Source: Elusimicrobiota bacterium (GTDB taxonomy: Bacteria > Elusimicrobiota > Elusimicrobia > F11). Taken from it: DNA of 64,000 nucleotides. Under the pieces are notes generated by a model. That model ran no database searches. It worked only from the letters and a program-made list of their open reading frames with translations, and was not told the DNA's origin. Positions 3,257 to 46,476 of the stretch are shown here, one piece after another. Position 1 is the stretch's first letter. Every line of letters begins with the position of its first letter. A program made the position numbers and the translations under genes. The stretch covers positions 96,001 to 160,000 of the forward strand of contig JBGAON010000001.1 in NCBI GenBank assembly GCA_044221725.1, read 5' to 3'.

Positions 3257-3557
3257 CCAAGGCGACAAGTTTTGGGTAGTGGTCGACGCCAAATCGACCA
3301 GCGAATTGAGCGACATCCTGTTTGAGACGACCATAGATGGGCTGGAGCGCCAATTCAAAGGAGGGTTGACCTCGGACGACAACGTCACCATCTTCGCAGA
3401 CCATAACGAGGCGGCGATGGAGGCGCACCGACGCATGACCGCCGTCAACGTGGCCGAGGCGATCAAGAACATGGCCTCGGCCGACAGCATGAAGAAGGCC
3501 AAAACAGTCGAATTCAAATCCGCCTCCGGCGCGGTGGTGTTTTCCGTGAAATTATGA
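3246..3557 (+). CDS. Hypothetical protein (start reassigned to MRINQG)
   Basis: AAGGAGG RBS before ATG 3246; ATGA overlap with recombinase. Confidence 0.65.
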   Translation: MRINQGDKFWVVVDAKSTSELSDILFETTIDGLERQFKGGLTSDDNVTIFADHNEAAMEAHRRMTAVNVAEAIKNMASADSMKKAKTVEFKSASGAVVFSVKL

Positions 3558-4444
3558 CGGTTAACGCGGCTCTCTTGGCCCGGTTTCTCACCCATCTCCG
3601 CGTGGAGCGCGGGTTGTCAAAATCTACGGAGATCACGTACCGCCATCAACTTCTCGCCTATCTAAACTTCCTCGACCAGAACCGTCAAAGCGTTGAGTCC
3701 GCGACGCACGATGACGTCATGGCGTTTCAAGAACAACGAAAGAACCTGGGGCTTAAATCCGCCTCCCTTTTCATCTCTGCGGTGACGATACGGCAGTTCC
3801 ACCGCTTCCTCAAAGGCCGGGGCCACGCGTCATCCGACCCGACAAGCGAATTCCGGCTGCCAAAATTCAAGCAGCGGATTCCGCAGCCCATCAACGCGAA
3901 CGATATGGAAAAATTGTTGGAGTCTGCTCCCAGTCAAAAGTTCACGGTCATTCGTAACCACGCCATGCTCGAACTTGCCTTCGGGACGGGCATGCGAGTT
4001 ACCGAACTGACTGGCCTCAATGTCAACCAAATCAATTTGACCGAAGGGTGGGTCCGAGTTTTGGGAAAGGGGTCCAAGGAGCGAATCATTCCGGTGGGCA
4101 CCAAAGCCATCGAAGCTTTGGCCATTTATCTTGAAGCCAGGAAGTCGCGATACCCCAATGAGGACGGGCCTTTGTTTGTTAATTCGAGGGGAAAAAGGCT
4201 AACACGGGCGGGATTCTGGTGGCTTTTGCGAGGGAAGGCCAACCAGAAAGGCATCAAGGCAAGAATCTCTCCACACCAACTGAGGCATAGCTATGCCACG
4301 GCCCTTTTGGAGGGCGGCGCCTCGTTGAGAACAATTCAGGTTTTAATGGGGCACGAGCGACTGGATACCCTGCAAAAATATACTCACGTGAGCGCGAAAC
4401 TTCTGAGAGAAACCTGCCGCAAAAGCCACCCACGATTCTCCTGA
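3554..4444 (+). CDS. XerC/XerD-like tyrosine recombinase
   Basis: N-terminal HLRVERGLS..T..Y; catalytic R (TGMRVTEL), K (GKGSKER), HQLRH, LMGH, Y (QKYTHV). Confidence 0.9.
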   Translation: MTVNAALLARFLTHLRVERGLSKSTEITYRHQLLAYLNFLDQNRQSVESATHDDVMAFQEQRKNLGLKSASLFISAVTIRQFHRFLKGRGHASSDPTSEFRLPKFKQRIPQPINANDMEKLLESAPSQKFTVIRNHAMLELAFGTGMRVTELTGLNVNQINLTEGWVRVLGKGSKERIIPVGTKAIEALAIYLEARKSRYPNEDGPLFVNSRGKRLTRAGFWWLLRGKANQKGIKARISPHQLRHSYATALLEGGASLRTIQVLMGHERLDTLQKYTHVSAKLLRETCRKSHPRFS

Positions 4445-4523: not shown

Positions 4524-5627
4524 ATGACGGTGAATCAAGTGGAAGAAAAAACACAGTTGGATTCTAGTTTAGTCCAATTGGCCCGGTTGGCGCTCAGTGG
4601 ACGGCGGCAAGATATTGAACTTTTTATCCGCCGACTCATCCATAACAATGGATTGTCCGTCGATGCCTCAAAAAAGCTGACGCGGCTTCTTCAAGACTCG
4701 CCTACCAAGAACTCTCCGCTTCGCAACGAGACGTTTCCCGCTCTTCCCGTGGATATGGATTCGCGGCTTCAACTCTTACGACAGGAATATCCTGCGGTGA
4801 TCGATCAAGAGCCGATTTGGGCTCCCAGTGTACGGAGCAACCTAGAACAGATCATTCAGGAACGCGAGCAAGAATCGAATTTGATCCGGGCCGGCATTCA
4901 GCCCAGCCGGTCTTTGCTTTTTACAGGAGAGCCGGGCGTTGGAAAATCTTTAGCGGCCCGCTGGCTCGCCAACAAACTCCAACTTCCTCTGTTGATTCTT
5001 GATTTGTCCGCTGTCATGAGCAGTTTTTTGGGGCGCACTGGGGCCAACGTGCGGAACGTGATCGACTACGCCAAGGGGAGCCGTGCAATTCTTCTCCTGG
5101 ATGAATTCGATGCGATTGCGAAACGGCGCGACGACGCCGTAGAGGTGGGCGAGTTAAAACGCCTTGTGACGGTTCTTCTCCAAGAGATAGATGACTGGCC
5201 ATCAACCGGAATTCTCATCGCGGCCACCAATCATTCCAACCTACTTGATCCCGCTGTCTGGCGGCGGTTTGATCTTCTCGTCGAGTTTCCCATGCCAACG
5301 GAAGAACAAGTAGGCGAAAAAATAAAGAATGTTTTTGGCGCTGACTCTGAATTGTCCCAGGAGTGGATTGATATTTTGCGCCTGCTTTTGGCGGGATCGT
5401 CATTCGCGGAAATAGAACGAGAGTTGCTCACCATTCGCCGTCGAGCAATTATTAGTCAATCGTCGCATCAAGACCTGATCACGGAATTTGTTAAAAGCAA
5501 AACACAACAACTCAGGAATAAGACCCGTGTTAATATCGCCCAACGCCTGATCGAGTTGGGCTACTCTCAAAGACGAGCTCATGAATGGACAGGCGTAAGC
5601 CGAGACACAATAAGAAAGACGATCTAG
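4524..5627 (+). CDS. ietA: AAA+ ATPase, IetA-like, with C-terminal HTH
   Basis: Walker A GEPGVGKS, Walker B LLLDEFD, AATNH..LDPAVWRRFD; directly upstream of an S8 protease. Confidence 0.8.
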   Translation: MTVNQVEEKTQLDSSLVQLARLALSGRRQDIELFIRRLIHNNGLSVDASKKLTRLLQDSPTKNSPLRNETFPALPVDMDSRLQLLRQEYPAVIDQEPIWAPSVRSNLEQIIQEREQESNLIRAGIQPSRSLLFTGEPGVGKSLAARWLANKLQLPLLILDLSAVMSSFLGRTGANVRNVIDYAKGSRAILLLDEFDAIAKRRDDAVEVGELKRLVTVLLQEIDDWPSTGILIAATNHSNLLDPAVWRRFDLLVEFPMPTEEQVGEKIKNVFGADSELSQEWIDILRLLLAGSSFAEIERELLTIRRRAIISQSSHQDLITEFVKSKTQQLRNKTRVNIAQRLIELGYSQRRAHEWTGVSRDTIRKTI

Positions 5628-7876
5628 CTTCAGCCCAATCTCCGGCTACCCGGGCCAATTACATCCTGGCTCATGGGGAACGGCTTACCAAACCGGTCAG
5701 TATTCCTCGCGGCGCTGGTGAGAAAGTTCATCCCTATTCCTTCGCCGAGGCCAAAGACCGCCTTCGCCCTCAGATAAAAAAAGTCGTCGAAACCGTTTTC
5801 GCTCTGCCAGCGGACACCTGCCCCAACGATGAAACCGTCATCGGTCTCACGCTTCATCCTTCTTACCTGGCCAAGTCTTATTTCCCAGTCAATCTTCTTC
5901 GCGCCTTAAACTTGCGAGTAGTAGGAAGTCAACGGAAGATGATTTCTCCTGAGAAAACGGTGGGCAAAAAAACGTCAGGAGAAGTTCCGACCGTTGAGTT
6001 ATTTGTGGCAGGACAGCGAAGTGCCATTCAGCGGTTAGCGGAACGGCAAGACAAATGGAATCCTCGATCCACGGAAGCTCAAGACCTGATCCGGATCGAG
6101 AGGATTCAACCCATCAAGCCGGAAGACAAATTTGTTCCTTTTGATTCCAAGGAGGAAGTACCGCTCCTTGAAATTGTTCTCCACGCTTCCAAGAACGCTG
6201 AATCGCGTTACATTGTGGAAGGTTTTTTCAAATTTCTCTCCGGCCTGGGGATCGAGGCCAAGTATTCTGAAAAGAAGCTTTTCGTTGGCGGCTTGTGCTT
6301 TATTCCGCTTCGAGCGCCTCAATCATTGATTCCAAAAATCATCTCCTATTCCTTCTTACGAGTTCTCCGAAAGATGCCGTCTCTGCGGAGCTTCCTTCCG
6401 TTGCTTCGCATGGCCACGAAGACCGAGCCTTTCCCTTTTGATTCTCCTGAGGGAGGCCCTATAAATCCGGATATCCACACAGTTGTTATGGACGGAGGAA
6501 TACCCAGCAATGCAAATCTGAGTCGTTGGGTTCACTACGAAAAGGCTCCTGGCGTAACCGAGGAGGATGAGGATGGACTCAAGCACGGCCTTACCGTCAC
6601 CTCGGCCGTGCTCTTTGGTCCGCTTCAGAAGGACGCTCCGGTTTCCTTTCCGTTCTCACGATTGGATCATTACTGCGTTCTCGGAAAAAACGACCAGGGA
6701 GATTTCATTTACGATGTTCTCGCTCGCGTGATTTCCGTCCTTGAATCCAAGCGGTATGAATTCGCCAACCTAAGCCTCGGACCACGTCTTCCTATCGAAG
6801 ACAACCATGTCGATCCGTGGACATCGGTGATTGACCAAGTGCTCTCGGATGGGAAAATTTTCTTGACAGTGGCCGTTGGCAACGATGGAGACAAAGACAG
6901 GCCCTCCGGCAACGCCCGCATTCAGATCCCTGCGGATTGTGTGAATGCCGTTTCGGTCGGCGCCGCCGATTCATTGTCGAGAATATGGCGGCGGGCTCCT
7001 TATAGTTCCATTGGGCCTGGACGAACACCTGGTTACTTCAAGCCGGATGTGGTTGCGTTTGGGGGGGCGGACGCGGAACCTTTTTGGGTCATCGATCCGC
7101 AGAATCCAGCGTCGACATTTCCAGCGGGAGGGACCAGCTACTCGTCGCCCGCCGCTTTGCGTATCGCTTTGGGCTTAAGATCTCAATACGGGGGCGACCT
7201 TAAACCGCTCGTACTTAAAGCCTTGCTTGTCCATCACAGCGACTCGCTCGGTCACGATAAGATCGAGGTTGGATGGGGAAGGATTCCGGCTTCACTCGAT
7301 GCTTATATGAAGTGTCCCCCGGGCACGATAAAAATTCTCTATCAAGGTGAACTCCCACCCAAAAAATATCTCCGGATCCCCGTGCCGCTGCCGAAGGAAA
7401 CCCTGAAAGGCAATGTGACAATCAAAGCCACTCTGTGTTACGCCACCGAAACCGATCCAGAGCATCCCTTCCATTACAGCCGGAGCGGTCTTGAAGTTAC
7501 TTTCCGGCCGCATTCAAAAGTTCGGTCCCGTCCGGAGCAAGAACAACCAAAAACCACGTCTTTTTTTAGGCCGGACGATCAATACATGACAGAAAGCGCG
7601 TTACGCCGGAGCGCTTTCAAATGGGAATCCACCTTGCATGGGCAGAAGAGAATGAGAGGAGCGAGTCTTGACGATCCCGTGTTCGATGTCCATTACATGG
7701 CGAGAACGGGGGGCAGGCCAGCGAAAGACCCCAAACCAATCGCGTATGCTTTCGTTTTAACGGTCGAAGCGCCCAATCACCCTGACCTCTATGACAACGT
7801 TGTCGTCAGGTATCGAACCCAACTGGAAGCGCTGCGACCTGTGGTTGAGATTCCCATCCAATCTCAGGGAATGTGA
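5585..7876 (+). CDS. ietS: S8 (subtilisin-like) serine protease, IetS-like
   Basis: Triad VMDGG / KHGLTV / GTSYSS, oxyanion AVGND, KPDVVAFGG; no signal peptide. Confidence 0.8.
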   Translation: MDRRKPRHNKKDDLASAQSPATRANYILAHGERLTKPVSIPRGAGEKVHPYSFAEAKDRLRPQIKKVVETVFALPADTCPNDETVIGLTLHPSYLAKSYFPVNLLRALNLRVVGSQRKMISPEKTVGKKTSGEVPTVELFVAGQRSAIQRLAERQDKWNPRSTEAQDLIRIERIQPIKPEDKFVPFDSKEEVPLLEIVLHASKNAESRYIVEGFFKFLSGLGIEAKYSEKKLFVGGLCFIPLRAPQSLIPKIISYSFLRVLRKMPSLRSFLPLLRMATKTEPFPFDSPEGGPINPDIHTVVMDGGIPSNANLSRWVHYEKAPGVTEEDEDGLKHGLTVTSAVLFGPLQKDAPVSFPFSRLDHYCVLGKNDQGDFIYDVLARVISVLESKRYEFANLSLGPRLPIEDNHVDPWTSVIDQVLSDGKIFLTVAVGNDGDKDRPSGNARIQIPADCVNAVSVGAADSLSRIWRRAPYSSIGPGRTPGYFKPDVVAFGGADAEPFWVIDPQNPASTFPAGGTSYSSPAALRIALGLRSQYGGDLKPLVLKALLVHHSDSLGHDKIEVGWGRIPASLDAYMKCPPGTIKILYQGELPPKKYLRIPVPLPKETLKGNVTIKATLCYATETDPEHPFHYSRSGLEVTFRPHSKVRSRPEQEQPKTTSFFRPDDQYMTESALRRSAFKWESTLHGQKRMRGASLDDPVFDVHYMARTGGRPAKDPKPIAYAFVLTVEAPNHPDLYDNVVVRYRTQLEALRPVVEIPIQSQGM

Positions 7877-26051: not shown

Positions 26052-27167
26052 TTAGGCTTGCTGAAGGGCGAGCGCCACTTTCAGCTTCTTCTGGGGCGGC
26101 AAACCCTCAAATGTTTTTTTGAGCTCATCGCCTTGCGGCTCCTGATCAACCAATCCCTTTCGAATGGCCGGGATCTGTTTGAGCATCGGCTCAATTTGTT
26201 TCTTCACTTCGCTGGAAATCATCTCCGCCATCTCTTCTTTGCTGACGGATTTCGGAACTGCGGCCGAGGCGGGCGGCGTCCACTGTTCACCGATCGCTTG
26301 TTTCAGCATGGCCTTGATCTGGATCGCGGTTGGTCCGATCTCGCCGCCCATCGCAATCAAGCGGTCAAGCATCATCCACACAGGTTCAAGCGAGAGGCCT
26401 CCGGCCGAAGGGCCGTTGGCTTTTTTCGTTTCCTTTTCTTTTTTTGGTTTGCTGTCCTTCCCTGCAACTTTTTCGGGCGGCTGATCCTGCGGAGCGGGGG
26501 TTTCTTGGGGCTGGGGTTCCGGTTTGGGATCCGCTGGTTTTTCTTCTGGGACTGGAGCATCAGCGGGTTTTTCGTCGTCCGGCTTGATCTCCTCAATAAT
26601 GGTTTCTTCTTGAGACATGGTGTCTCCTCCTTGGGTCGATGACCCGTTCTGGGAATCGATTTCATCGAGCGCTTTCTGGACGTACCATCCAATGGCGCGG
26701 GCTTCGGGATTGGCAGGCACGGACACAAGCGACACTTCCACGAGCGCCATGCGCTTGATGACGTTCACCACTCGGTCCAAGTCCGGCATGTATTTCTTCT
26801 CACGCTCCAGCACCTGGCCTCGAATGGAAAATTTGTTGAGAACGCCCTCTTTGATTTTCTGAATGATTTCGGGTTCGGTTTGGGAAATGAGGACATCGAT
26901 AAGGAGGCCGTTTTTGTCGAACTCGGCTTTGGTCACTTTGCCGATGGGAATCTTGATGTCGTGGTTTAAGAGGACGGTGGAATTTTTGACGAGGTCGAGC
27001 TGGGAGGCCCGCAGAGCATCTTCGGAGATGATGTCGCCCTGCAGGTCAAAATCCGAGGTGGCGGCGTACCCGACAATATGGAACTCGCCTTCGGTTTCCG
27101 CTTGTTTGGTGATCTCCAGCGGAAAATCGAATGAGATTTTCTCCAGTGTTGCCGTTTCCTGTTCCAT
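26052..27167 (-). CDS. HK97-type prohead protease fused to scaffold domain
   Basis: IVGYAAT..DLQGDII, LLNHD..PIGK, FSIRG, LVEVSLVSVPANPEA; GGAGG RBS before ATG 27167. Confidence 0.9.
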   Translation of the reverse strand: MEQETATLEKISFDFPLEITKQAETEGEFHIVGYAATSDFDLQGDIISEDALRASQLDLVKNSTVLLNHDIKIPIGKVTKAEFDKNGLLIDVLISQTEPEIIQKIKEGVLNKFSIRGQVLEREKKYMPDLDRVVNVIKRMALVEVSLVSVPANPEARAIGWYVQKALDEIDSQNGSSTQGGDTMSQEETIIEEIKPDDEKPADAPVPEEKPADPKPEPQPQETPAPQDQPPEKVAGKDSKPKKEKETKKANGPSAGGLSLEPVWMMLDRLIAMGGEIGPTAIQIKAMLKQAIGEQWTPPASAAVPKSVSKEEMAEMISSEVKKQIEPMLKQIPAIRKGLVDQEPQGDELKKTFEGLPPQKKLKVALALQQA

Positions 27168-27195: not shown

Positions 27196-27266
27196 AAAAA
27201 AAGGCGCTGTCATCTGAAGGTCCCGAAAGACCCACAGACAACAGCGCCTCGACTCAGCTCGACAGC
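27196..27266 (-). terminator. Long-stem intrinsic terminator with overlapping alternative hairpin (element B)
   Basis: Minus strand GGCGCTGT...ACAGCGCC stem with TTCG-capped top, then T7; 5' GCT-GT-CGA-GCTGAG-TCG-A-GGC overlaps the stem base. Confidence 0.75.
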
Positions 27267-27274
27267 GCGCTACG

Positions 27275-27466
27275 TTATGCTTCGATCAATTTTTTCACGC
27301 CTTCTTCCACCAGCGTCTCATGCCGTTTGATGCGGATGATGTGTCCATTTTCAAAATGCGTTTCCACAACTCCGAAGAACTTTTCGTCCTTGAGCTTCCT
27401 GCAGAACGCCTGATAAACCGCATCCGTGACTGCCGATTTCGCATCCATGCCATTATTCTGGATCAT
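27275..27466 (-). CDS. Small DUF2292/YezD-like protein
   Basis: Helix followed by KFFGVVETHFENGHIIRIKRHET; stop 8 nt before element B; family call by eye. Confidence 0.6.
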   Translation of the reverse strand: MIQNNGMDAKSAVTDAVYQAFCRKLKDEKFFGVVETHFENGHIIRIKRHETLVEEGVKKLIEA

Positions 27467-27541
27467 CAATCTATGATTCGTCCATCAACTTTCATTGTGT
27501 TTATTTTTCTGACGAGGAGGGGAGATAGCTCATCGAAATAA

Positions 27542-29257
27542 TTATGAAGACATCTTCTCGACGTAGGTTTCTGACTCCTTGACCGGATAATTTGACACCA
27601 GCAACTCAAATTTATTCCGGTGTCCCAATTGATTCGCGCCCGTCCAAAGGGTTTTCACGCGGTAGGTTTTGAATCCTTTGAATAGGTTCTTTTTCTCCAG
27701 CTCGTAACTCAACAAAAACCGGCCTTTGATGGATTTGAGAACCGGTAACATATCCTCTTCCTTGAAAAACTTTGATCCGACTCCGCCCGTTTCTTTCGGC
27801 CAGTGAAGAGGATACGGCGGATCGAGATAGAAAAAGGCGTCCTTGGAATCGAATTCCTTTATCACGTCTTTCCAATCTTTGTTTATGAGTTTCACGCCGC
27901 GAAGCCGTTCTTTAATTTGCGGAAGCCGCTTCACCAGTTGGATCTCGTATCCCTCGCCTTTCTCTCCGGTTCGCATGCCTTCTATCCGGTCGGTGCGGCC
28001 CCAGTAATTGGCTTTGTTCAGGTAAGCGATCCGGTAAAACCGCTCGCGTGGGGACGATGGCTCGCGGTCGAACACTTTTTTAACGTGGGTACGGGAGATT
28101 GTCCAATACTGCTTCTCCAGCCATTTCTGATCCTCTTCATCCATATGCTTGATGAAGCGATACGCGAAAATGAGATCCGGGTTCACGTCGTTTAAGATTT
28201 CTTCGTTCGACCGTTTCTTATGGAAGAATACCTGGGCACCGCCACAAAAGCCTTCCACGAATGTCTTGTGTTCGGGAATCATGGGGACGAGTTTCTTGCA
28301 GAGGCGAAACTTTCCCCCAGGGCTTTTGAACGCACCTTGAATTTTCTCAACGCCATCATGCCCCTCCAAATGCGGAAAAAGAAGCGGGACGCCTTCTTCC
28401 ATACCTTCTGGTTTGGCGTCCAACTCCTTGTCGATGTAGAGGTGCTTTTTCTCGAGCGGATGTTTTGAAACAAGAAGCTCCGTCACCCACTCCTGATTGC
28501 CACCGGGCCCGCGCATTTGGTTGCGGCGCTTCACGCGATAAACGTTCATCCCTTTGAACGCGTTGGCTCGGTCACCGGTGTAGGACACGATCCAATCACC
28601 TCGAAGGGTTTTCAATTTCTTGATGAACTTCTGTTCTTCAAAACCGAAATCAAAAAGATTGAATGTGCCCGGGTACGGCGGGTCGATGTAGAAGAACGTG
28701 TCCTCCCCGTCATATTTCTTAAGCACCTCGGAATAATCCTTGTTGTGAACAACAACGTTTTTAATCCGCTGTTGGGAGCGGGTGATGTTGTTCTCGAAAT
28801 CAATGATCACGCCTGCGTTGGCCGGATTAAAGGAACCGCCCCGCATCTTCCCGTAGGAGGAGCGTGTCAAATAATAGGCCTTGTAGAACCGGTCCATCTC
28901 GGTGACCGGCTTCATCTTTTTCAACCGCTCGTGCGTTTCTTTGTTGATTTCCCAGTTCCGTTTGGCGAGAGCGGCGCGATCTTCCTTCGTGTGGTCGCGG
29001 ATAAACCGGTACATGAAGGCGATTTCGGAGTCGCGGTCGTTGATGATTTCTTGCGGTGACGGATCTTTGGCGAAAAGAACCGCCGCACCACCAGCAAACG
29101 GTTCAACGTAAGTTTTGTGATAAGGAATGTATGCGGCGATCTTGTGCGCGAGTGCACGCTTGCCGCCGTAGGAGCCGAAGGCTTGCCGAACTCCTTTTTC
29201 TAAATCTGATTCTCCGCTCACCGGCTGATCAGCCGGTGAAATTTCTGTTGGTTCCAT
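27542..29257 (-). CDS. Tandem two-domain Dam-family (D12 class) N6-adenine DNA methyltransferase
   Basis: Domain 1 YGGK/YVEPFAGG/IND/YIDPPY; domain 2 PGGK/FVEGFCGG/LND/YLDPPY. Confidence 0.9.
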   Translation of the reverse strand: MEPTEISPADQPVSGESDLEKGVRQAFGSYGGKRALAHKIAAYIPYHKTYVEPFAGGAAVLFAKDPSPQEIINDRDSEIAFMYRFIRDHTKEDRAALAKRNWEINKETHERLKKMKPVTEMDRFYKAYYLTRSSYGKMRGGSFNPANAGVIIDFENNITRSQQRIKNVVVHNKDYSEVLKKYDGEDTFFYIDPPYPGTFNLFDFGFEEQKFIKKLKTLRGDWIVSYTGDRANAFKGMNVYRVKRRNQMRGPGGNQEWVTELLVSKHPLEKKHLYIDKELDAKPEGMEEGVPLLFPHLEGHDGVEKIQGAFKSPGGKFRLCKKLVPMIPEHKTFVEGFCGGAQVFFHKKRSNEEILNDVNPDLIFAYRFIKHMDEEDQKWLEKQYWTISRTHVKKVFDREPSSPRERFYRIAYLNKANYWGRTDRIEGMRTGEKGEGYEIQLVKRLPQIKERLRGVKLINKDWKDVIKEFDSKDAFFYLDPPYPLHWPKETGGVGSKFFKEEDMLPVLKSIKGRFLLSYELEKKNLFKGFKTYRVKTLWTGANQLGHRNKFELLVSNYPVKESETYVEKMSS

Positions 29258-34718: not shown

Positions 34719-34916
34719 TCAAGTGGACTCAACAGCCCTCCTCAATCGTCTTTGATAATTCCGCTGATATTTTTTCCGCCATGAACGCCAACACTCCGCG
34801 TGATACGTTTGATTGCAAAACCACGGCCACAGTGTTTTTCCACACACGCGACATTTTCGTTTCGGCGGCGCGATCAATTTTCTCTTGCTCCATATTTTGG
34901 CCTTTGGGCTTGTCAT
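34719..34916 (-). CDS. Small basic zinc-finger protein
   Basis: CRVCGK..YHAEC followed by Arg/Lys-rich helix; start uncertain. Confidence 0.5.
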   Translation of the reverse strand: MTSPKAKIWSKRKLIAPPKRKCRVCGKTLWPWFCNQTYHAECWRSWRKKYQRNYQRRLRRAVEST

Positions 34917-34930
34917 ACGTCCATCAACTC

Positions 34931-35377
34931 TCAAACTGTCAACGGCACATTCGCGCACAAGGTGTTCGCCTCGACTTTATCTGAACCGCTATGCAAAGGA
35001 ATCTTGGCGATAACTTCTGAATGCGTGTCGTGCCATACGCCCATCACGCGGGGCAGAATAAATTTGTCGTTCGTGACCACGCCGCCCAATTGCATCGCGT
35101 CGAACAGAATTTTTCCGTAGTTATGCGCGTCGCAATTGGTTCGAGGCAAGATGAACCAGAGATCCACATATGCGTAGGTTTCGATGGGCTTGAACTTCTC
35201 CCGTTTCATCAATATTTTCAGCTCGAGGCCCACAGTCCGGATGTATTGGCGCGCTTCTTGGGTGAGAATCGACCGGCAGTTCCGGCCCATGCGTACCGGT
35301 TGCATTCTTGCGTTGGTAGAAGGGCAAAGCGGAAGAAACAGCAACACGCCGCCTGTGAGGGTTTGCGATGAGATCAT
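34931..35377 (-). CDS. RusA-like Holliday junction resolvase
   Basis: LPLCPSTN, DAHNYGKILFDAM..GVVTNDK. Confidence 0.75.
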   Translation of the reverse strand: MISSQTLTGGVLLFLPLCPSTNARMQPVRMGRNCRSILTQEARQYIRTVGLELKILMKREKFKPIETYAYVDLWFILPRTNCDAHNYGKILFDAMQLGGVVTNDKFILPRVMGVWHDTHSEVIAKIPLHSGSDKVEANTLCANVPLTV

Positions 35378-42376: not shown

Positions 42377-42416
42377 CTACTTATCCTCTATCCCTTTCGC
42401 GGAAAAATTTTCCGGT
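42377..42416 (-). promoter_or_regulatory. 40-bp promoter-like repeat, copy 1 (faces replication operon)
   Basis: ACCGGAAAATTTTTCCGCGAAAGGGATAGAGGATAAGTAG, 35/40 identical to 44437-44476. Confidence 0.7.
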
Positions 42417-43007
42417 TGGCTGGGGGCAGACGGAAAATAATCTTTCAATCTCTCATCTTCCGCGAGGATCCGGCCCATGCGATGGAATTCAGCCTGCAGG
42501 GTGGTTCGGGGCTTTTTTATGAGGCGGCTGATTTCGATGGGCGAATAGCCCGCAATAATTAAGGAACCGATCTCGCGCTGTTCCTTGTTAAGCCGGCGGA
42601 ACATACGTTCGGCGTCATAAAGGAAGTCGGTGTCGGAGAAGGGGCAGGTTGGGCGTCCGCCTAAGCGGCTCGATTCCGAGATGCTTTCGGAGAGTGGCTG
42701 GCGATCTCCATCCTGGTTTTGGATCTCCTGATCCAATGACATGGTTACACACCCGCGACCGCGTTTCAGTGCATCGCGGAGTCTCATCAATTGGAGGATG
42801 GCTTTGTCGAGGATGAAACTTAGGAACTTCTCCTGAGAAGCGCTCGATGCGTGGTCGGGCCGATAGAGCCCGCGCCTTTCAACGATGAAAATTAAAAGTT
42901 GTTGTTCCATGTCTTGGCCATCCTCCTTTGTCAGCCGGAATTTTCGTTTCGCCGCCTCACTCTTTTTTTTTCGCCATCCTCAGTTCCATCTCCGTCAGTT
43001 CTTTCAC
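42377..43007 (-). CDS. ECF/sigma70-like factor, interrupted by a frameshift in an A9 run (intact part 42377-42910)
   Basis: Region-2-like DMEQQLL..Y.P..FLSFI, SLD, region-4 HTH GYSPIEISRLIKKPRTTL; AGGAGG+GTG at 43007 joins in frame only if the run is A8. Confidence 0.7.
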
Positions 43008-43045: not shown

Positions 43046-43116
43046 CAAAAAAATAGGGGCTGCTGGCATCTCGAGAATTTCTCGAGGTTGCCAACAGCCC
43101 CCGTCTTTCGGTCGGC
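43046..43116 (-). terminator. Long-stem intrinsic terminator with overlapping alternative hairpin (element A)
   Basis: Minus strand GGGGCTGTTGGCA..CTCGAGAAATTCTCGAG..TGCCAGCAGCCCC-TATTTTTTT; 5' GCC-GA-CCG-AAAGA-CGG-G-GGC overlaps the stem base. Confidence 0.75.
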
Positions 43117-43161: not shown

Positions 43162-43506
43162 TTATTTTGGGATGCTCCTTTGCTTCTGTCTTTCGCAAAT
43201 GCGAATGGGAGTTCGGTTTTGAACGCAGATCTTCGATAGAGTGATCGTCTTTCCCTTGCAGTAAGTCATCAACCGGTGCCATTCCGGCGAAATCGGATGA
43301 CTGGCGTCAAACGGTGAATTGGATTTGCTTAGGTTCTCGATGAGGCAAGAAGTTTCCATGTCGAAAACCGGTCGAGGCAAGCCAGCTACGATCTCAAGGC
43401 CCAGAATTTCTCCAAAGTAAAGTTGATGGGAAGCTCGGATAACCACCTGCCATTCCGAAGGGAGATCATTAATAAGGACAGGACGGGCGGTTGGGGAGGG
43501 GATCAT
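43162..43506 (-). CDS. Hypothetical protein with two helix+beta-hairpin units (DUF2292-like by eye)
   Basis: PSEWQVVI..YFGEILGLEIVAGLP and SPEWHRLM..LSKICVQNRTP; directly upstream of element A. Confidence 0.55.
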   Translation of the reverse strand: MIPSPTARPVLINDLPSEWQVVIRASHQLYFGEILGLEIVAGLPRPVFDMETSCLIENLSKSNSPFDASHPISPEWHRLMTYCKGKTITLSKICVQNRTPIRICERQKQRSIPK

Positions 43507-43514
43507 GATGGGTG

Positions 43515-43757
43515 TTACCGCCCCGTGATCACAAAGAGGTCGTCAAATTGAAAAAATGGATGGCCTTCGATTTTCTGGGTTGCGTTCAATGCGGCTAGGA
43601 TTCGGGTTCGCACTTCTGGAGAGGGCATTCTTTTTCGCGTCATCAATTGCGACATGTAAGGACTGCTGATGTGCGCTCGGCGGGCGAAGGAGTTATAGGA
43701 TAAGTTCTTTTTCGCCAGGAGCCGTTTCAGGGTTAGGGTTTTAAGTCGAACGGTCAC
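43515..43757 (-). CDS. Cro-like XRE HTH regulator
   Basis: KNLSYNSFARRAHISSPYMSQLM..PS; GGAGG RBS; divergent from repressor. Confidence 0.8.
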   Translation of the reverse strand: MTVRLKTLTLKRLLAKKNLSYNSFARRAHISSPYMSQLMTRKRMPSPEVRTRILAALNATQKIEGHPFFQFDDLFVITGR

Positions 43758-43885: not shown

Positions 43886-44386
43886 ATGACAACACGAAAG
43901 ATTGACGAAAAACCAGGTTTACAGGACCGGCGGACAAAAACGGTGCCCCCATCAGAAAGAGGGCCTCGTGCCTACTTGCGGGATGAAAAAAGAAAGGGCC
44001 CAAAAGAAAGACGGGCTCATCCGCGCCCTCATCCAAGCAACTTGGCCGGTTTCCTTAAAAGATTGAGGATGGAACGGGGATTTACTCTGCGACAAGCCGG
44101 TAGCGAGATGGGAATCAACGATGCGTATCTTTGGCAACTTGAAAACGGAAAACGAGAAATACCTCGTCCAGACACCCTGGAGAAGTTGGCGAATGGCTAT
44201 GGCATTCCCCATGATTATCTTTTGCGAATGGTGGGGTACCTAAAAAATCAGGACGCCTATTTCAAAGGCATCGATGAGATGCAGACTTCATACCTCTTTC
44301 GTGATTATCAAAAGTTGTCTAATGAAGGTAAGAAGAAGCTGGAAAGTTTTTTGCGATTCCTACAAAAGGAAGACAAAAAAGAGTGA
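43886..44386 (+). CDS. CI-like XRE repressor without S24 peptidase domain
   Basis: LKRLRMERGFTLRQ..YLWQLENG..P..TLEKLA. Confidence 0.8.
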   Translation: MTTRKIDEKPGLQDRRTKTVPPSERGPRAYLRDEKRKGPKERRAHPRPHPSNLAGFLKRLRMERGFTLRQAGSEMGINDAYLWQLENGKREIPRPDTLEKLANGYGIPHDYLLRMVGYLKNQDAYFKGIDEMQTSYLFRDYQKLSNEGKKKLESFLRFLQKEDKKE

Positions 44387-44732: not shown

Positions 44733-46361
44733 ATGAAAAGCCCTGTTGAACAAAAACCCACCACCTTGTTGTGCGCGGTTTACACGCGTAAATCCACCGA
44801 CGAGAATCTGAATACGGGTTTTACCTCGCTTGATTCGCAGCGCGAGTACTGTCAGGCATTTGTTAAAAGTCGGGAAGGCGAAGGTTGGCGCGTCCACGCC
44901 GAGGAATACAACGATCCGGGATTCTCAGGCGGCAATATGAACCGCCCAGGTTTAAGAAAACTTCTCGCCGATGCTCGCGCCAGAAAATTTCAGGTCGTAG
45001 TTTGCTACAAGTACGATCGGCTAAGTCGCAACACAAAAGATTTTCTTCAAATCCTCGAAGTTTTTGACCGAAGCGGCGTCGCCTTTGTTTCGGTCACCCA
45101 ACCCATCGATACCACCTCTTCCGTCGGAAGATTGATGAGAAGCATCCTTATGGATTTTTCGCAATTCGAGCGCGAGATGATTGCGGAGCGCACCAGAGAC
45201 AAACTTCACGCCATGGCTCAAAAAGGAAAACGCACGGGCGGCTGGCCCGTCATCGGCTACAACATCGATAGCGAAAACCGGAAGTTATCGGTCAACGCCG
45301 AAGAAGGGCTGTGTGTGCGGGAGATGTTTGAAGCCTATCTTCGGACGTTGTCCTTAAGCCAAGCGGCTCAATATTTGAATGAGAAGGGCTATCGGATGAA
45401 GGAATGGATCACCCACAGCAAGAAGCGTCGGGGAGGGCAAAAATTCAACAAGGCCAGCCTGTGGTATCTTCTGCAGAATCCGCTTTATGTCGGGAAGATA
45501 ACGCACCGTCGGCAGGTTCTGCCCGGCGAGCATGAGGCCATTATTTCGCAGGAGATTTTTGACGCCGCGCAAAAGGCTCTTCGCGCCAACGGCAATGGAA
45601 CGAAGAACAAACACGTCCAAGAACGGAAGCGCGATTTTCTTTTGCGCGGACTGATGGAATGCGCCACCTGCAAGACCTCGATGACGCCGAGCTCGGCATT
45701 ACCGAGGAGCAGGCGGGGCGTATCCTATGAGCGCTTCTACTATTACAAATGCCTGTCGGTCGTGAAGATGAATAAATCGGCCTGCAAGATCAGACATGTG
45801 TCGGCGAAATCAATAGAGGAATATGTCGTCAAACGATTGGAATTGCTGAGCGAAAATCAGGAGATTGTGGAACAGATCGTGGCTGAGGCCCAGTCGACAA
45901 CCAGTCAGGAGCTTCCGATTAAGCGGGATGAAAGAAAACGGCTGGCCGCGGAACTGGGAAAACTCGAACTGCAAGCCAAGAGCCTCGTCATGGTCCTCGC
46001 TGATGAAGGGCCAACTTCGTCTATGCGATCTTATGTGAGAGACCAATTGGCCGAGATCGAGGCAAAGAAACAGGAGAGCGGCCCGCGGGTTGCCTCACTT
46101 GATCTTGAAATCGAACGGTTGGAAAAGCGCCAGATCGACGCTAACGTCGTGCGTCGGAATCTTGGCAACTTCCTCAAACTCTTCGCAAAAATGTCCGGCG
46201 ACGAGCGGCAGGAAATGATGGGGCTGCTGGTGGGTCGTGTGATCTACGACGGAGAAAAGTCTCGGGTTCGCATCGCCCTCCGCCCCCTGCCTGAAGCCTG
46301 GGGCGACCTAGATTACCTGGAAGGCGTTTTCTACGACCGTCAAACATCTCTGCCGGACTAG
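44733..46361 (+). CDS. Large serine recombinase (integrase)
   Basis: YTRKST catalytic Ser, YDRLSR, FERE.I.ERT, NPLYVG, HEAIIS, Zn ribbon CATC..YYKC..C, coiled coil. Confidence 0.95.
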   Translation: MKSPVEQKPTTLLCAVYTRKSTDENLNTGFTSLDSQREYCQAFVKSREGEGWRVHAEEYNDPGFSGGNMNRPGLRKLLADARARKFQVVVCYKYDRLSRNTKDFLQILEVFDRSGVAFVSVTQPIDTTSSVGRLMRSILMDFSQFEREMIAERTRDKLHAMAQKGKRTGGWPVIGYNIDSENRKLSVNAEEGLCVREMFEAYLRTLSLSQAAQYLNEKGYRMKEWITHSKKRRGGQKFNKASLWYLLQNPLYVGKITHRRQVLPGEHEAIISQEIFDAAQKALRANGNGTKNKHVQERKRDFLLRGLMECATCKTSMTPSSALPRSRRGVSYERFYYYKCLSVVKMNKSACKIRHVSAKSIEEYVVKRLELLSENQEIVEQIVAEAQSTTSQELPIKRDERKRLAAELGKLELQAKSLVMVLADEGPTSSMRSYVRDQLAEIEAKKQESGPRVASLDLEIERLEKRQIDANVVRRNLGNFLKLFAKMSGDERQEMMGLLVGRVIYDGEKSRVRIALRPLPEAWGDLDYLEGVFYDRQTSLPD

Positions 46362-46420
46362 GATTCGAACCTAGACGAGCAGATTCAGAGTCTGCCATCC
46401 TACCATTAGATGATCCGGCA
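46350..46420 (-). tRNA. tRNA-Gln(CTG), CCA not encoded
   Basis: Acceptor TGCCGGA/TCCGGCA, anticodon arm GCAGA-CTCTGAA-TCTGC, T arm CTAGG-TTCGAAT-CCTAG. Confidence 0.95.
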
Positions 46421-46476
46421 AAAGTGGGACGGGTATGATTATAAATGATCGTGATATACTCTGACACCGAAATCCC

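Follow-up and report, generated by a model that had tools for sequence, protein, structure and literature searches.

The window analysed here is a stretch of 64,000 nucleotides, C3:96001-160000 of the Elusimicrobiota genome G000, and feature coordinates below are window positions unless a contig is named. It holds a prophage which spans from a serine recombinase gene beside tRNA-Gln (44733-46421) to about 7883, with genes ordered as repressor/cro, replication, packaging, head, tail and lysis. At two places in this prophage, copies A and B, a small open reading frame is followed by a hairpin that overlaps a predicted intrinsic terminator, an arrangement referred to below as a gate. The features concerned are as follows.

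43886-44386, plus strand: repressor-like gene, which forms with the next feature a divergent helix-turn-helix (HTH) pair (Pfam HTH) heading the early operon
43515-43757, minus strand: cro-like gene
43162-43506, minus strand: ORF A, 114 aa, two DUF2292-like units in tandem, behind the cro-like gene
43097-43116, minus strand: hairpin A, 'GA/G' type, conserved with its terminator in three related prophages
43047-43101, minus strand: predicted intrinsic terminator A before the replication genes, with U7 at 43053-43047
34894-34942, minus strand: second copy of the late-promoter motif (-35 at 34923), heading the packaging operon
27455-27503, minus strand: predicted late promoter P_B, a conserved motif
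27275-27448, minus strand: ORF B, 57 aa, a remote DUF2292/YezD/OscA-family protein and candidate antiterminator
27244-27268, minus strand: hairpin B (core 27266-27246), 'GU/A' type, a putative antiterminator identified by fold and covariation
27196-27250, minus strand: predicted intrinsic terminator B, stem 27248-27203 and U7 27202-27196
26052-27167, minus strand: prohead protease (PF04586), first gene of the gated capsid-tail-lysis operon

The capsid-tail-lysis operon behind gate B includes an amidase gene and extends to the prophage end at about 7883. Behind terminator A lie replication genes (AAA, helicase, primase-polymerase and RusA), and the packaging operon comprises terminase, portal and methylase. 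Between the portal gene and the late promoter, a gene at 27542-29257 (minus strand) encodes 571 aa that include two D12 adenine methyltransferase domains.

P_B is composed of an imperfect palindrome (27503-27485), an abutting -35 element TGGACG (27484-27479), 18 nt and a -10 element CAGAAT (27460-27455). The same layout, palindrome, TGGAC, 17–18 nt and a -10 hexamer with an ATG 6–9 nt further on, is found upstream of most ORFs of the ORF B family, and P_B (site at 27484) is the genome's best match to a promoter matrix whose training set left out this genome's own sites and included close relatives. Two promoter copies 7–8 kb apart also occur in eight related prophages. No hairpin gate follows the copy at 34923, and the RNA model returned only copies A and B on the window. 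A LexA box was rejected as the likely reading of the palindrome: the host lexA leader carries another palindrome, the recA leader lacks the palindrome, and two phage operons begin with the motif. The palindrome-TGGAC element resembles a late promoter of the phage more than a LexA box of the host, and we infer that transcription starts from it. The palindrome over the lexA promoter, CCTAC-N4-GTAGG at G000:C5 about 363100 (L252), is itself a candidate LexA box of the host lineage. The product of the first large gene after gate A (42377-42910, minus strand), 177 aa long, is weakly similar to sigma factors (phrog_1740, E 0.002) and is a candidate activator of the palindrome-TGGAC promoters.

The ATG at 27448 stands 6 nt past the -10 and is most likely the start of ORF B, giving 57 aa and probably a leaderless mRNA. 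A longer start with an 'MMIQNNG' extension was set aside, since it overlaps the conserved promoter and two of three database relatives begin at Met 27448.

Immediately downstream, the preliminary description had reported the ORF stop, an 8-nt spacer, a hairpin and a long terminator with U7 before the protease-capsid-tail-lysis genes, and all of these are in place: the ORF B stop (27277-27275) is followed by 8 nt and then by hairpin B. The 21-nt core reads GCU-GU-CGA-hexaloop-UCG-A-GGC, with two more GC pairs possible, out to 27268-27244. The hairpin itself stood as described, whereas the internal loop assigned to it did not, as pairing is possible between the U of 'GW' and the A that precedes GGC, which gives a 4-bp stem with one bulged G. 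The 3′ arm of hairpin B shares its bases with the basal pairs of terminator B. Folding energies were -40.2 kcal/mol for terminator B, -33.0 for the hairpin-enforced state and -12.4 for the nascent hairpin alone. The two folds had been called mutually exclusive, and this holds for the base of the terminator, where the hairpin takes 3–5 bp, but the upper stem persists, shifted away from the U tract. Under established terminator mechanics, loss of the basal pairs beside the U tract should suffice to block termination. A switch of this kind needs a stabiliser of the hairpin. The built-in terminator scan misses both gates, whose stems are long and interrupted. An Rfam search of the window gave only a tRNA, with chance miRNA-level scores in the hairpin region.

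A recurrence of this architecture had been noted at 43046-43116, and hairpin A (43116-43097), its terminator and U7 are indeed present there, with a stop-to-hairpin spacing of 39–45 nt. Orthologues of ORF A were found in two related genomes, G002 (two) and G005, and ORF A is kept together with copy A in three related prophages. Copy A would gate the replication genes behind a tandem-repeat paralogue of ORF B. A short ORF ending in an A run lies immediately past terminator A (43006-42957, minus strand) and is kept in three related prophages.

Neither ORF A nor ORF B was assigned a family in direct Pfam, PHROGs and NCBIfam scans. ORF B had no PF10055 match at E ≤ 10 (the Pfam cut-off is 22 bits) and scored 12.7 bits against NF033785, for which the cut-off is 85; a single-protein search of viral sequences with ORF B gave no match. 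At the profile level the picture differs. Single-sequence matches to ORF B were found in 9 of 101 relatives and profile matches in 14 of 301 genomes of the phylum, the profile collecting 138 cluster-representative matches, although the broad family alignment was too divergent for locus searches. In hhalign, the ORF B profile aligned with PF10055 proteins over 32 columns (prob 95, E 3.9e-8), and PF10055 was reached at E ≤ 0.001 by 11 of 137 profile matches, five of them over the cut-off. ORF B carries a helix followed by an aromatic-G-x-hydrophobic beta hairpin, as DUF2292 does, which fits remote homology. The earlier assignment as DUF2292-like is therefore sustained by profiles, and not by PF10055 scores of either window ORF alone. 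For ORF A, hhalign against PF10055 proteins gave prob 86, with prob 74 and 78 for the single halves; one comparison was negative, profile A3 giving prob 0.4 against the single sequence.

ORF B is under purifying selection (pN < pS in 11 of 11 pairs), and both motif and fold are conserved in its family. AlphaFold models it as alpha-beta-beta-alpha (pLDDT 90.4) and ORF A, with moderate confidence, as two alpha-beta-beta units (pLDDT 62). The ORF B monomer matched no solved structure at Z ≥ 5 (best Z 3.0) and nothing in Foldseek at E ≤ 0.001, the best viral hit being a 65-aa protein at E 0.029; the ORF A fold search likewise gave no convincing match (best Z 2.6). Such searches show neither a new fold nor an absence of relatives. 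Because a tandem paralogue exists in ORF A, the single-unit proteins, ORF B included, probably act as dimers.

Linkage of the hairpin to DUF2292-like ORFs, suggested in the preliminary description as a check, was borne out in both directions. Starting from the protein, 21 of 29 distinct ORF B family loci carry the hairpin with a full inner stem; these loci come from one phage lineage, so the counts are not independent. The terminator overlap is kept in all 21, and prohead protease is the next gene in 18. The remaining eight loci comprise three with recognisable variants and five with none directly downstream. Two hairpin-less homologues (L035 and L038) directly precede an excisionase-like HTH gene. 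Starting from the RNA, each of nine viral pattern matches (eight distinct sequences) has the family ORF directly upstream, ending within about 10 nt, with a pattern that was derived from the ORF B lineage itself. A genome-wide scan with the RNA pattern, used only as a control, returned at least 121 matches, mostly chance; among those listed, only two have the family ORF, both with a full stem and a strong terminator, and two are named records with the element, both Elusimicrobiota. The 28-position RNA model is weak genome-wide, and its matches above E about 0.02 in relatives are mostly coding and without terminators. Among 24 further model matches in relatives, two precede a terminator (by eye), both 34–35 nt after a DUF2292-profile ORF.

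The same hairpin follows canonical members of the protein family. Anchors defined by sequence alone, with no demand for pairing, were sought up to 100 nt from the stop codon and were present at 24 of 29 ORF B family loci and at 23 of 46 canonical PF10055 genes from four other bacterial groups, one of which was represented by 30 of its 47 matches. All 23 of the latter pair, and 18 overlap a terminator; several of the 23 PF10055 loci missing strict anchors have variants by eye. Across the 47 anchored loci, inner pairs were complete (3/3) in 44, compared with 24 of 430 control anchors. A structural scan of the PF10055 loci was positive at 23 of 47 (two distant and probably chance) against 0.43 expected from shuffles, and at 0 of 47 on the opposite strand. 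Covariation had also been predicted, and a 43-sequence alignment showed changes on both sides in six of eight pairs, outer GC pairs included, with none of 500 shuffles reaching its score, although the rows are related and were picked with a pattern demanding pairing, and the copy A row is off by one column; the anchor test is hence the fairer measure.

Hairpin type follows protein subfamily. The GU/A type, in which U pairs with A and one G is bulged, is seen in 21 of 21 ORF B family hairpins, the GA/A type in 23 of 23 PF10055 hairpins, and copy A has GA/G. This fixed difference fits protein-specific recognition, which would separate early and late gates, but it could equally stem from lineage alone. 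The hairpin might instead bind a host factor or metabolite, or the protein might bind it for mRNA stability or translation control, and some DUF2292 hairpins (L199 and L202) do lack a terminator and adjoin a ribosome-binding site. We consider such readings unlikely, as the hairpin tracks the protein family in the sulfur operons of several phyla as well as in phages and a satellite-like element, and the W position switches with the subfamily. Given the PF10055 loci that miss the strict anchors and the terminator-less hairpins, the DUF2292 family may have other roles as well.

At several loci in Bacilli the hairpin gate is accompanied by a riboswitch upstream of the DUF2292 gene, either SAM (L206, L207, L211, L214-L216 and L218) or cobalamin (L196), which would place two tiers of control on one operon. 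Rfam, run on 20 of the 47 PF10055 loci, detected these riboswitches and no family over the hairpin. At L219 the DUF2292 stop codon lies inside the 5′ arm of the hairpin.

Gates also occur without an adjacent ORF of the family. A scan for a hairpin with an overlapping terminator on both strands of the 2.8-Mb genome found six sites, compared with two in an equal amount of reversed/complemented sequence, and all six lie after family ORFs or before cyclase genes. Three follow the genome's only three family ORFs, namely A, B and one at C2:310690. The last precedes a primase-polymerase gene, behind a family ORF and a GU-type hairpin, in a satellite-like element (G000:C2:304707-313024) with integrases and genes resembling terminase, small and large; genes for head or tail were not seen in it. 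A similar element is present at G001:C14 (L301).

The other three gates, which have no ORF, precede class III nucleotidyl-cyclase genes (C3:78311, minus strand; C2:326913 and C2:322755, plus strand), the one at C2:322755 standing before an apparent frameshifted cyclase start. Ten full-length cyclase loci were collected, two in G000, six in G002, one in G343 and one on a metagenome contig (cyclase gate loci are also labelled L256, L258-L262 and L302). A strict or near-GU-type gate is present in eight, a variant in one and none within the 250 nt read in one, and the stems of these gates differ yet pair. The cyclase was detected in 3 of 301 genomes, all with an ORF B family match (incomplete at G343), and the six family ORFs of G002 lie away from its cyclase gates. 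At the ends of prophages, several cyclase copies neighbour lysis or integrase genes and cargo. The late-promoter motif was absent from the three cyclase leaders tested; several ORF-less gates have a TATAAT-like hexamer only about 20–25 nt upstream. Pycsar systems combine the cyclase PycC with a TM or TIR effector encoded next to it. The gated cyclase weakly matches the PycC profile (E 6.6e-5) and aligns to the adenylate cyclase 5o5k, the alignment keeping an Asp pair, which we take to be metal-binding, and an N..R motif. No shared neighbouring effector ORF of at least 80 aa was found among seven full-length cyclase loci compared.

These gates bear on translation-coupled attenuation, which the preliminary description had offered as an alternative and in which the ribosome finishing ORF B would select the fold, the protein sequence being incidental. 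The tight stop-to-hairpin spacing of the ORF B lineage, 2–13 nt, falls within a ribosome footprint and would suit such coupling. Against this, spacing runs from -5 to 62 nt at PF10055 loci and is 39–45 nt at copy A, and the protein motif and fold are conserved. ORF-less gates, several with their own promoter-like hexamer close by, cannot depend on a ribosome on a cis ORF, which makes them the strongest argument for a diffusible factor, and they argue for action in trans. Translation coupling is thus disfavoured, and we regard it as very improbable.

Two-way linkage, covariation, conserved terminator overlap and ORF-less copies all support the protein–RNA antitermination proposed at the outset. 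Gate B is probably a non-processive protein–RNA antiterminator, comparable with but unrelated to LicT/RAT, by which the phage would time its genes; we infer both binding and read-through from sequence comparison. The locus is arranged as a short transcript unit of late promoter, ORF B and terminator B, the latter favoured by about 7 kcal/mol. The late promoter would give a short transcript carrying ORF B and stopping at terminator B. Protein B, probably a dimer, would bind the bulged hairpin as the RNA leaves RNA polymerase and hold it; the held hairpin would remove the terminator's basal pairs beside the U tract and let polymerase enter the protease-capsid-tail-lysis genes. Because the protein comes from the terminated transcript itself, the gate would act as a threshold or delay. 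The module would serve at two points, replication genes being gated by the tandem ORF A and a GA-type hairpin and structural genes by ORF B and a GU-type hairpin, with ORF A acting earlier and opening the replication genes in the same way. If the protein acts in trans, the ORF-less GU-type gates before the cyclase genes would open with protein B. A point against this reading is that so few basal pairs are taken from a very long terminator.

The closest parallel is that of BglG/SacY/LicT/GlcT and the RAT (PMC7430163), where, as in gate B, a bulged hairpin that is unstable by itself shares bases with an intrinsic terminator and is the less stable of the two folds. Hairpin stabilisation by the protein, which gate B would share, is described for that system, as is the separation of paralogous systems by RNA/protein specificity (PMC7430163). 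BglG and LicT consist of a CAT RNA-binding domain and two PRDs, whereas ORF B is a stand-alone protein of 57 aa with no Pfam match and no room for PRDs, and neither sequence nor fold comparison (Foldseek E ≤ 0.001; structures Z ≥ 5) matched it to CAT. Control of gate B appears to be by protein amount from the late promoter during phage development, rather than by phosphorylation as in BglG/LicT. HutP/hut resembles gate B in having the regulator gene directly upstream of the controlled terminator, and HutP is a hexamer that is activated by His and Mg and recognises NAG repeats (PMC7430163). Gate B is without NAG repeats and ORF B without a HutP fold match. In phage lambda, N/nut and Q/qut work through N and Q modifying RNA polymerase processively. 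The prophage shares with lambda the logic of two gates, an early one ahead of replication genes and a late one ahead of structural genes; in contrast to lambda, the evidence here favours competing RNA folds, each at a single terminator.

Processive modification was nevertheless weighed, in which the small protein would load at the hairpin, as at lambda nut/boxB or conAn2, and alter RNA polymerase. Processivity could be of use to a late operon of 19 kb, and the order of genes resembles conAn1/conAn2 of pLS20, where a long operon of a mobile element likewise begins with a protein gene and then an RNA element (PMC8191782). There, conAn2 spans 260–600 nt, is active alone, becomes processive with ConAn1 and acts only in cis (PMC8191782), whereas the 21-nt hairpin of gate B stands 8 nt past the stop, is also found without an ORF and appears to respond in trans. 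Moreover, the hairpin overlaps its own terminator throughout the ORF B family, each gate has its own hairpin, single cyclase genes included, and terminator-like sites inside the late operon (35, against 26.9 ± 5.0 in shuffles) show no excess. Processive loading is accordingly an unlikely account.

No description of the protein–hairpin pair was found in the literature on DUF2292/YezD/OscA or on phage antitermination, subscription papers and bioRxiv supplements aside. The hairpin matched no Rfam family and the protein no solved fold, and the gate appears to be built from undescribed parts that exert a known kind of control. PMC2996968 describes OscA solely as a small protein whose function is unknown, which is transcribed together with sbp and is required for resistance to chromate. 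ORF B shares remote homology and the downstream hairpin with DUF2292/YezD/OscA, and differs in scoring below family cut-offs, in its GU/A RNA variant and in its phage rather than sulfur context. Our analysis offers a testable function for this widespread family of unknown function and delimits a cis-regulatory RNA of 21 nt that is absent from Rfam. It suggests that phage late-gene timing is possible without a processive change of RNA polymerase. The genetic switch would also be very compact, since it consists of a protein of 57 aa and an RNA of 21 nt and comes in two flavours that seem distinct.

The ORF-less gates indicate how unlinked genes could be wired to the phage late phase. An analogue is Lactococcus AbiD1, activated by phage Orf1, an RNA-binding protein that recognises a single RNA motif both within the operon encoding it and in the leader of a gene elsewhere (PMC2661086), yet activation there is translational and the protein unrelated. 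A broader reading is possible, though we hold it to be doubtful: DUF2292-like proteins would form a large undescribed class of RNA-binding antiterminators in orthogonal protein–RNA pairs, the phage would run a cascade of two gates, in which the tandem pseudo-dimer A acts on a GA hairpin to open replication genes and B on a GU hairpin to open structural genes, and the GU-gated satellite-like element and several cyclase genes of the same chromosome would read the late protein as a signal of lytic onset, starting cyclic-nucleotide synthesis.

At its far end the prophage carries an IetA/IetS defence pair (AAA ATPase and subtilase; 4524-7876, plus strand), adjoined by a tyrosine integrase gene (3554-4444).
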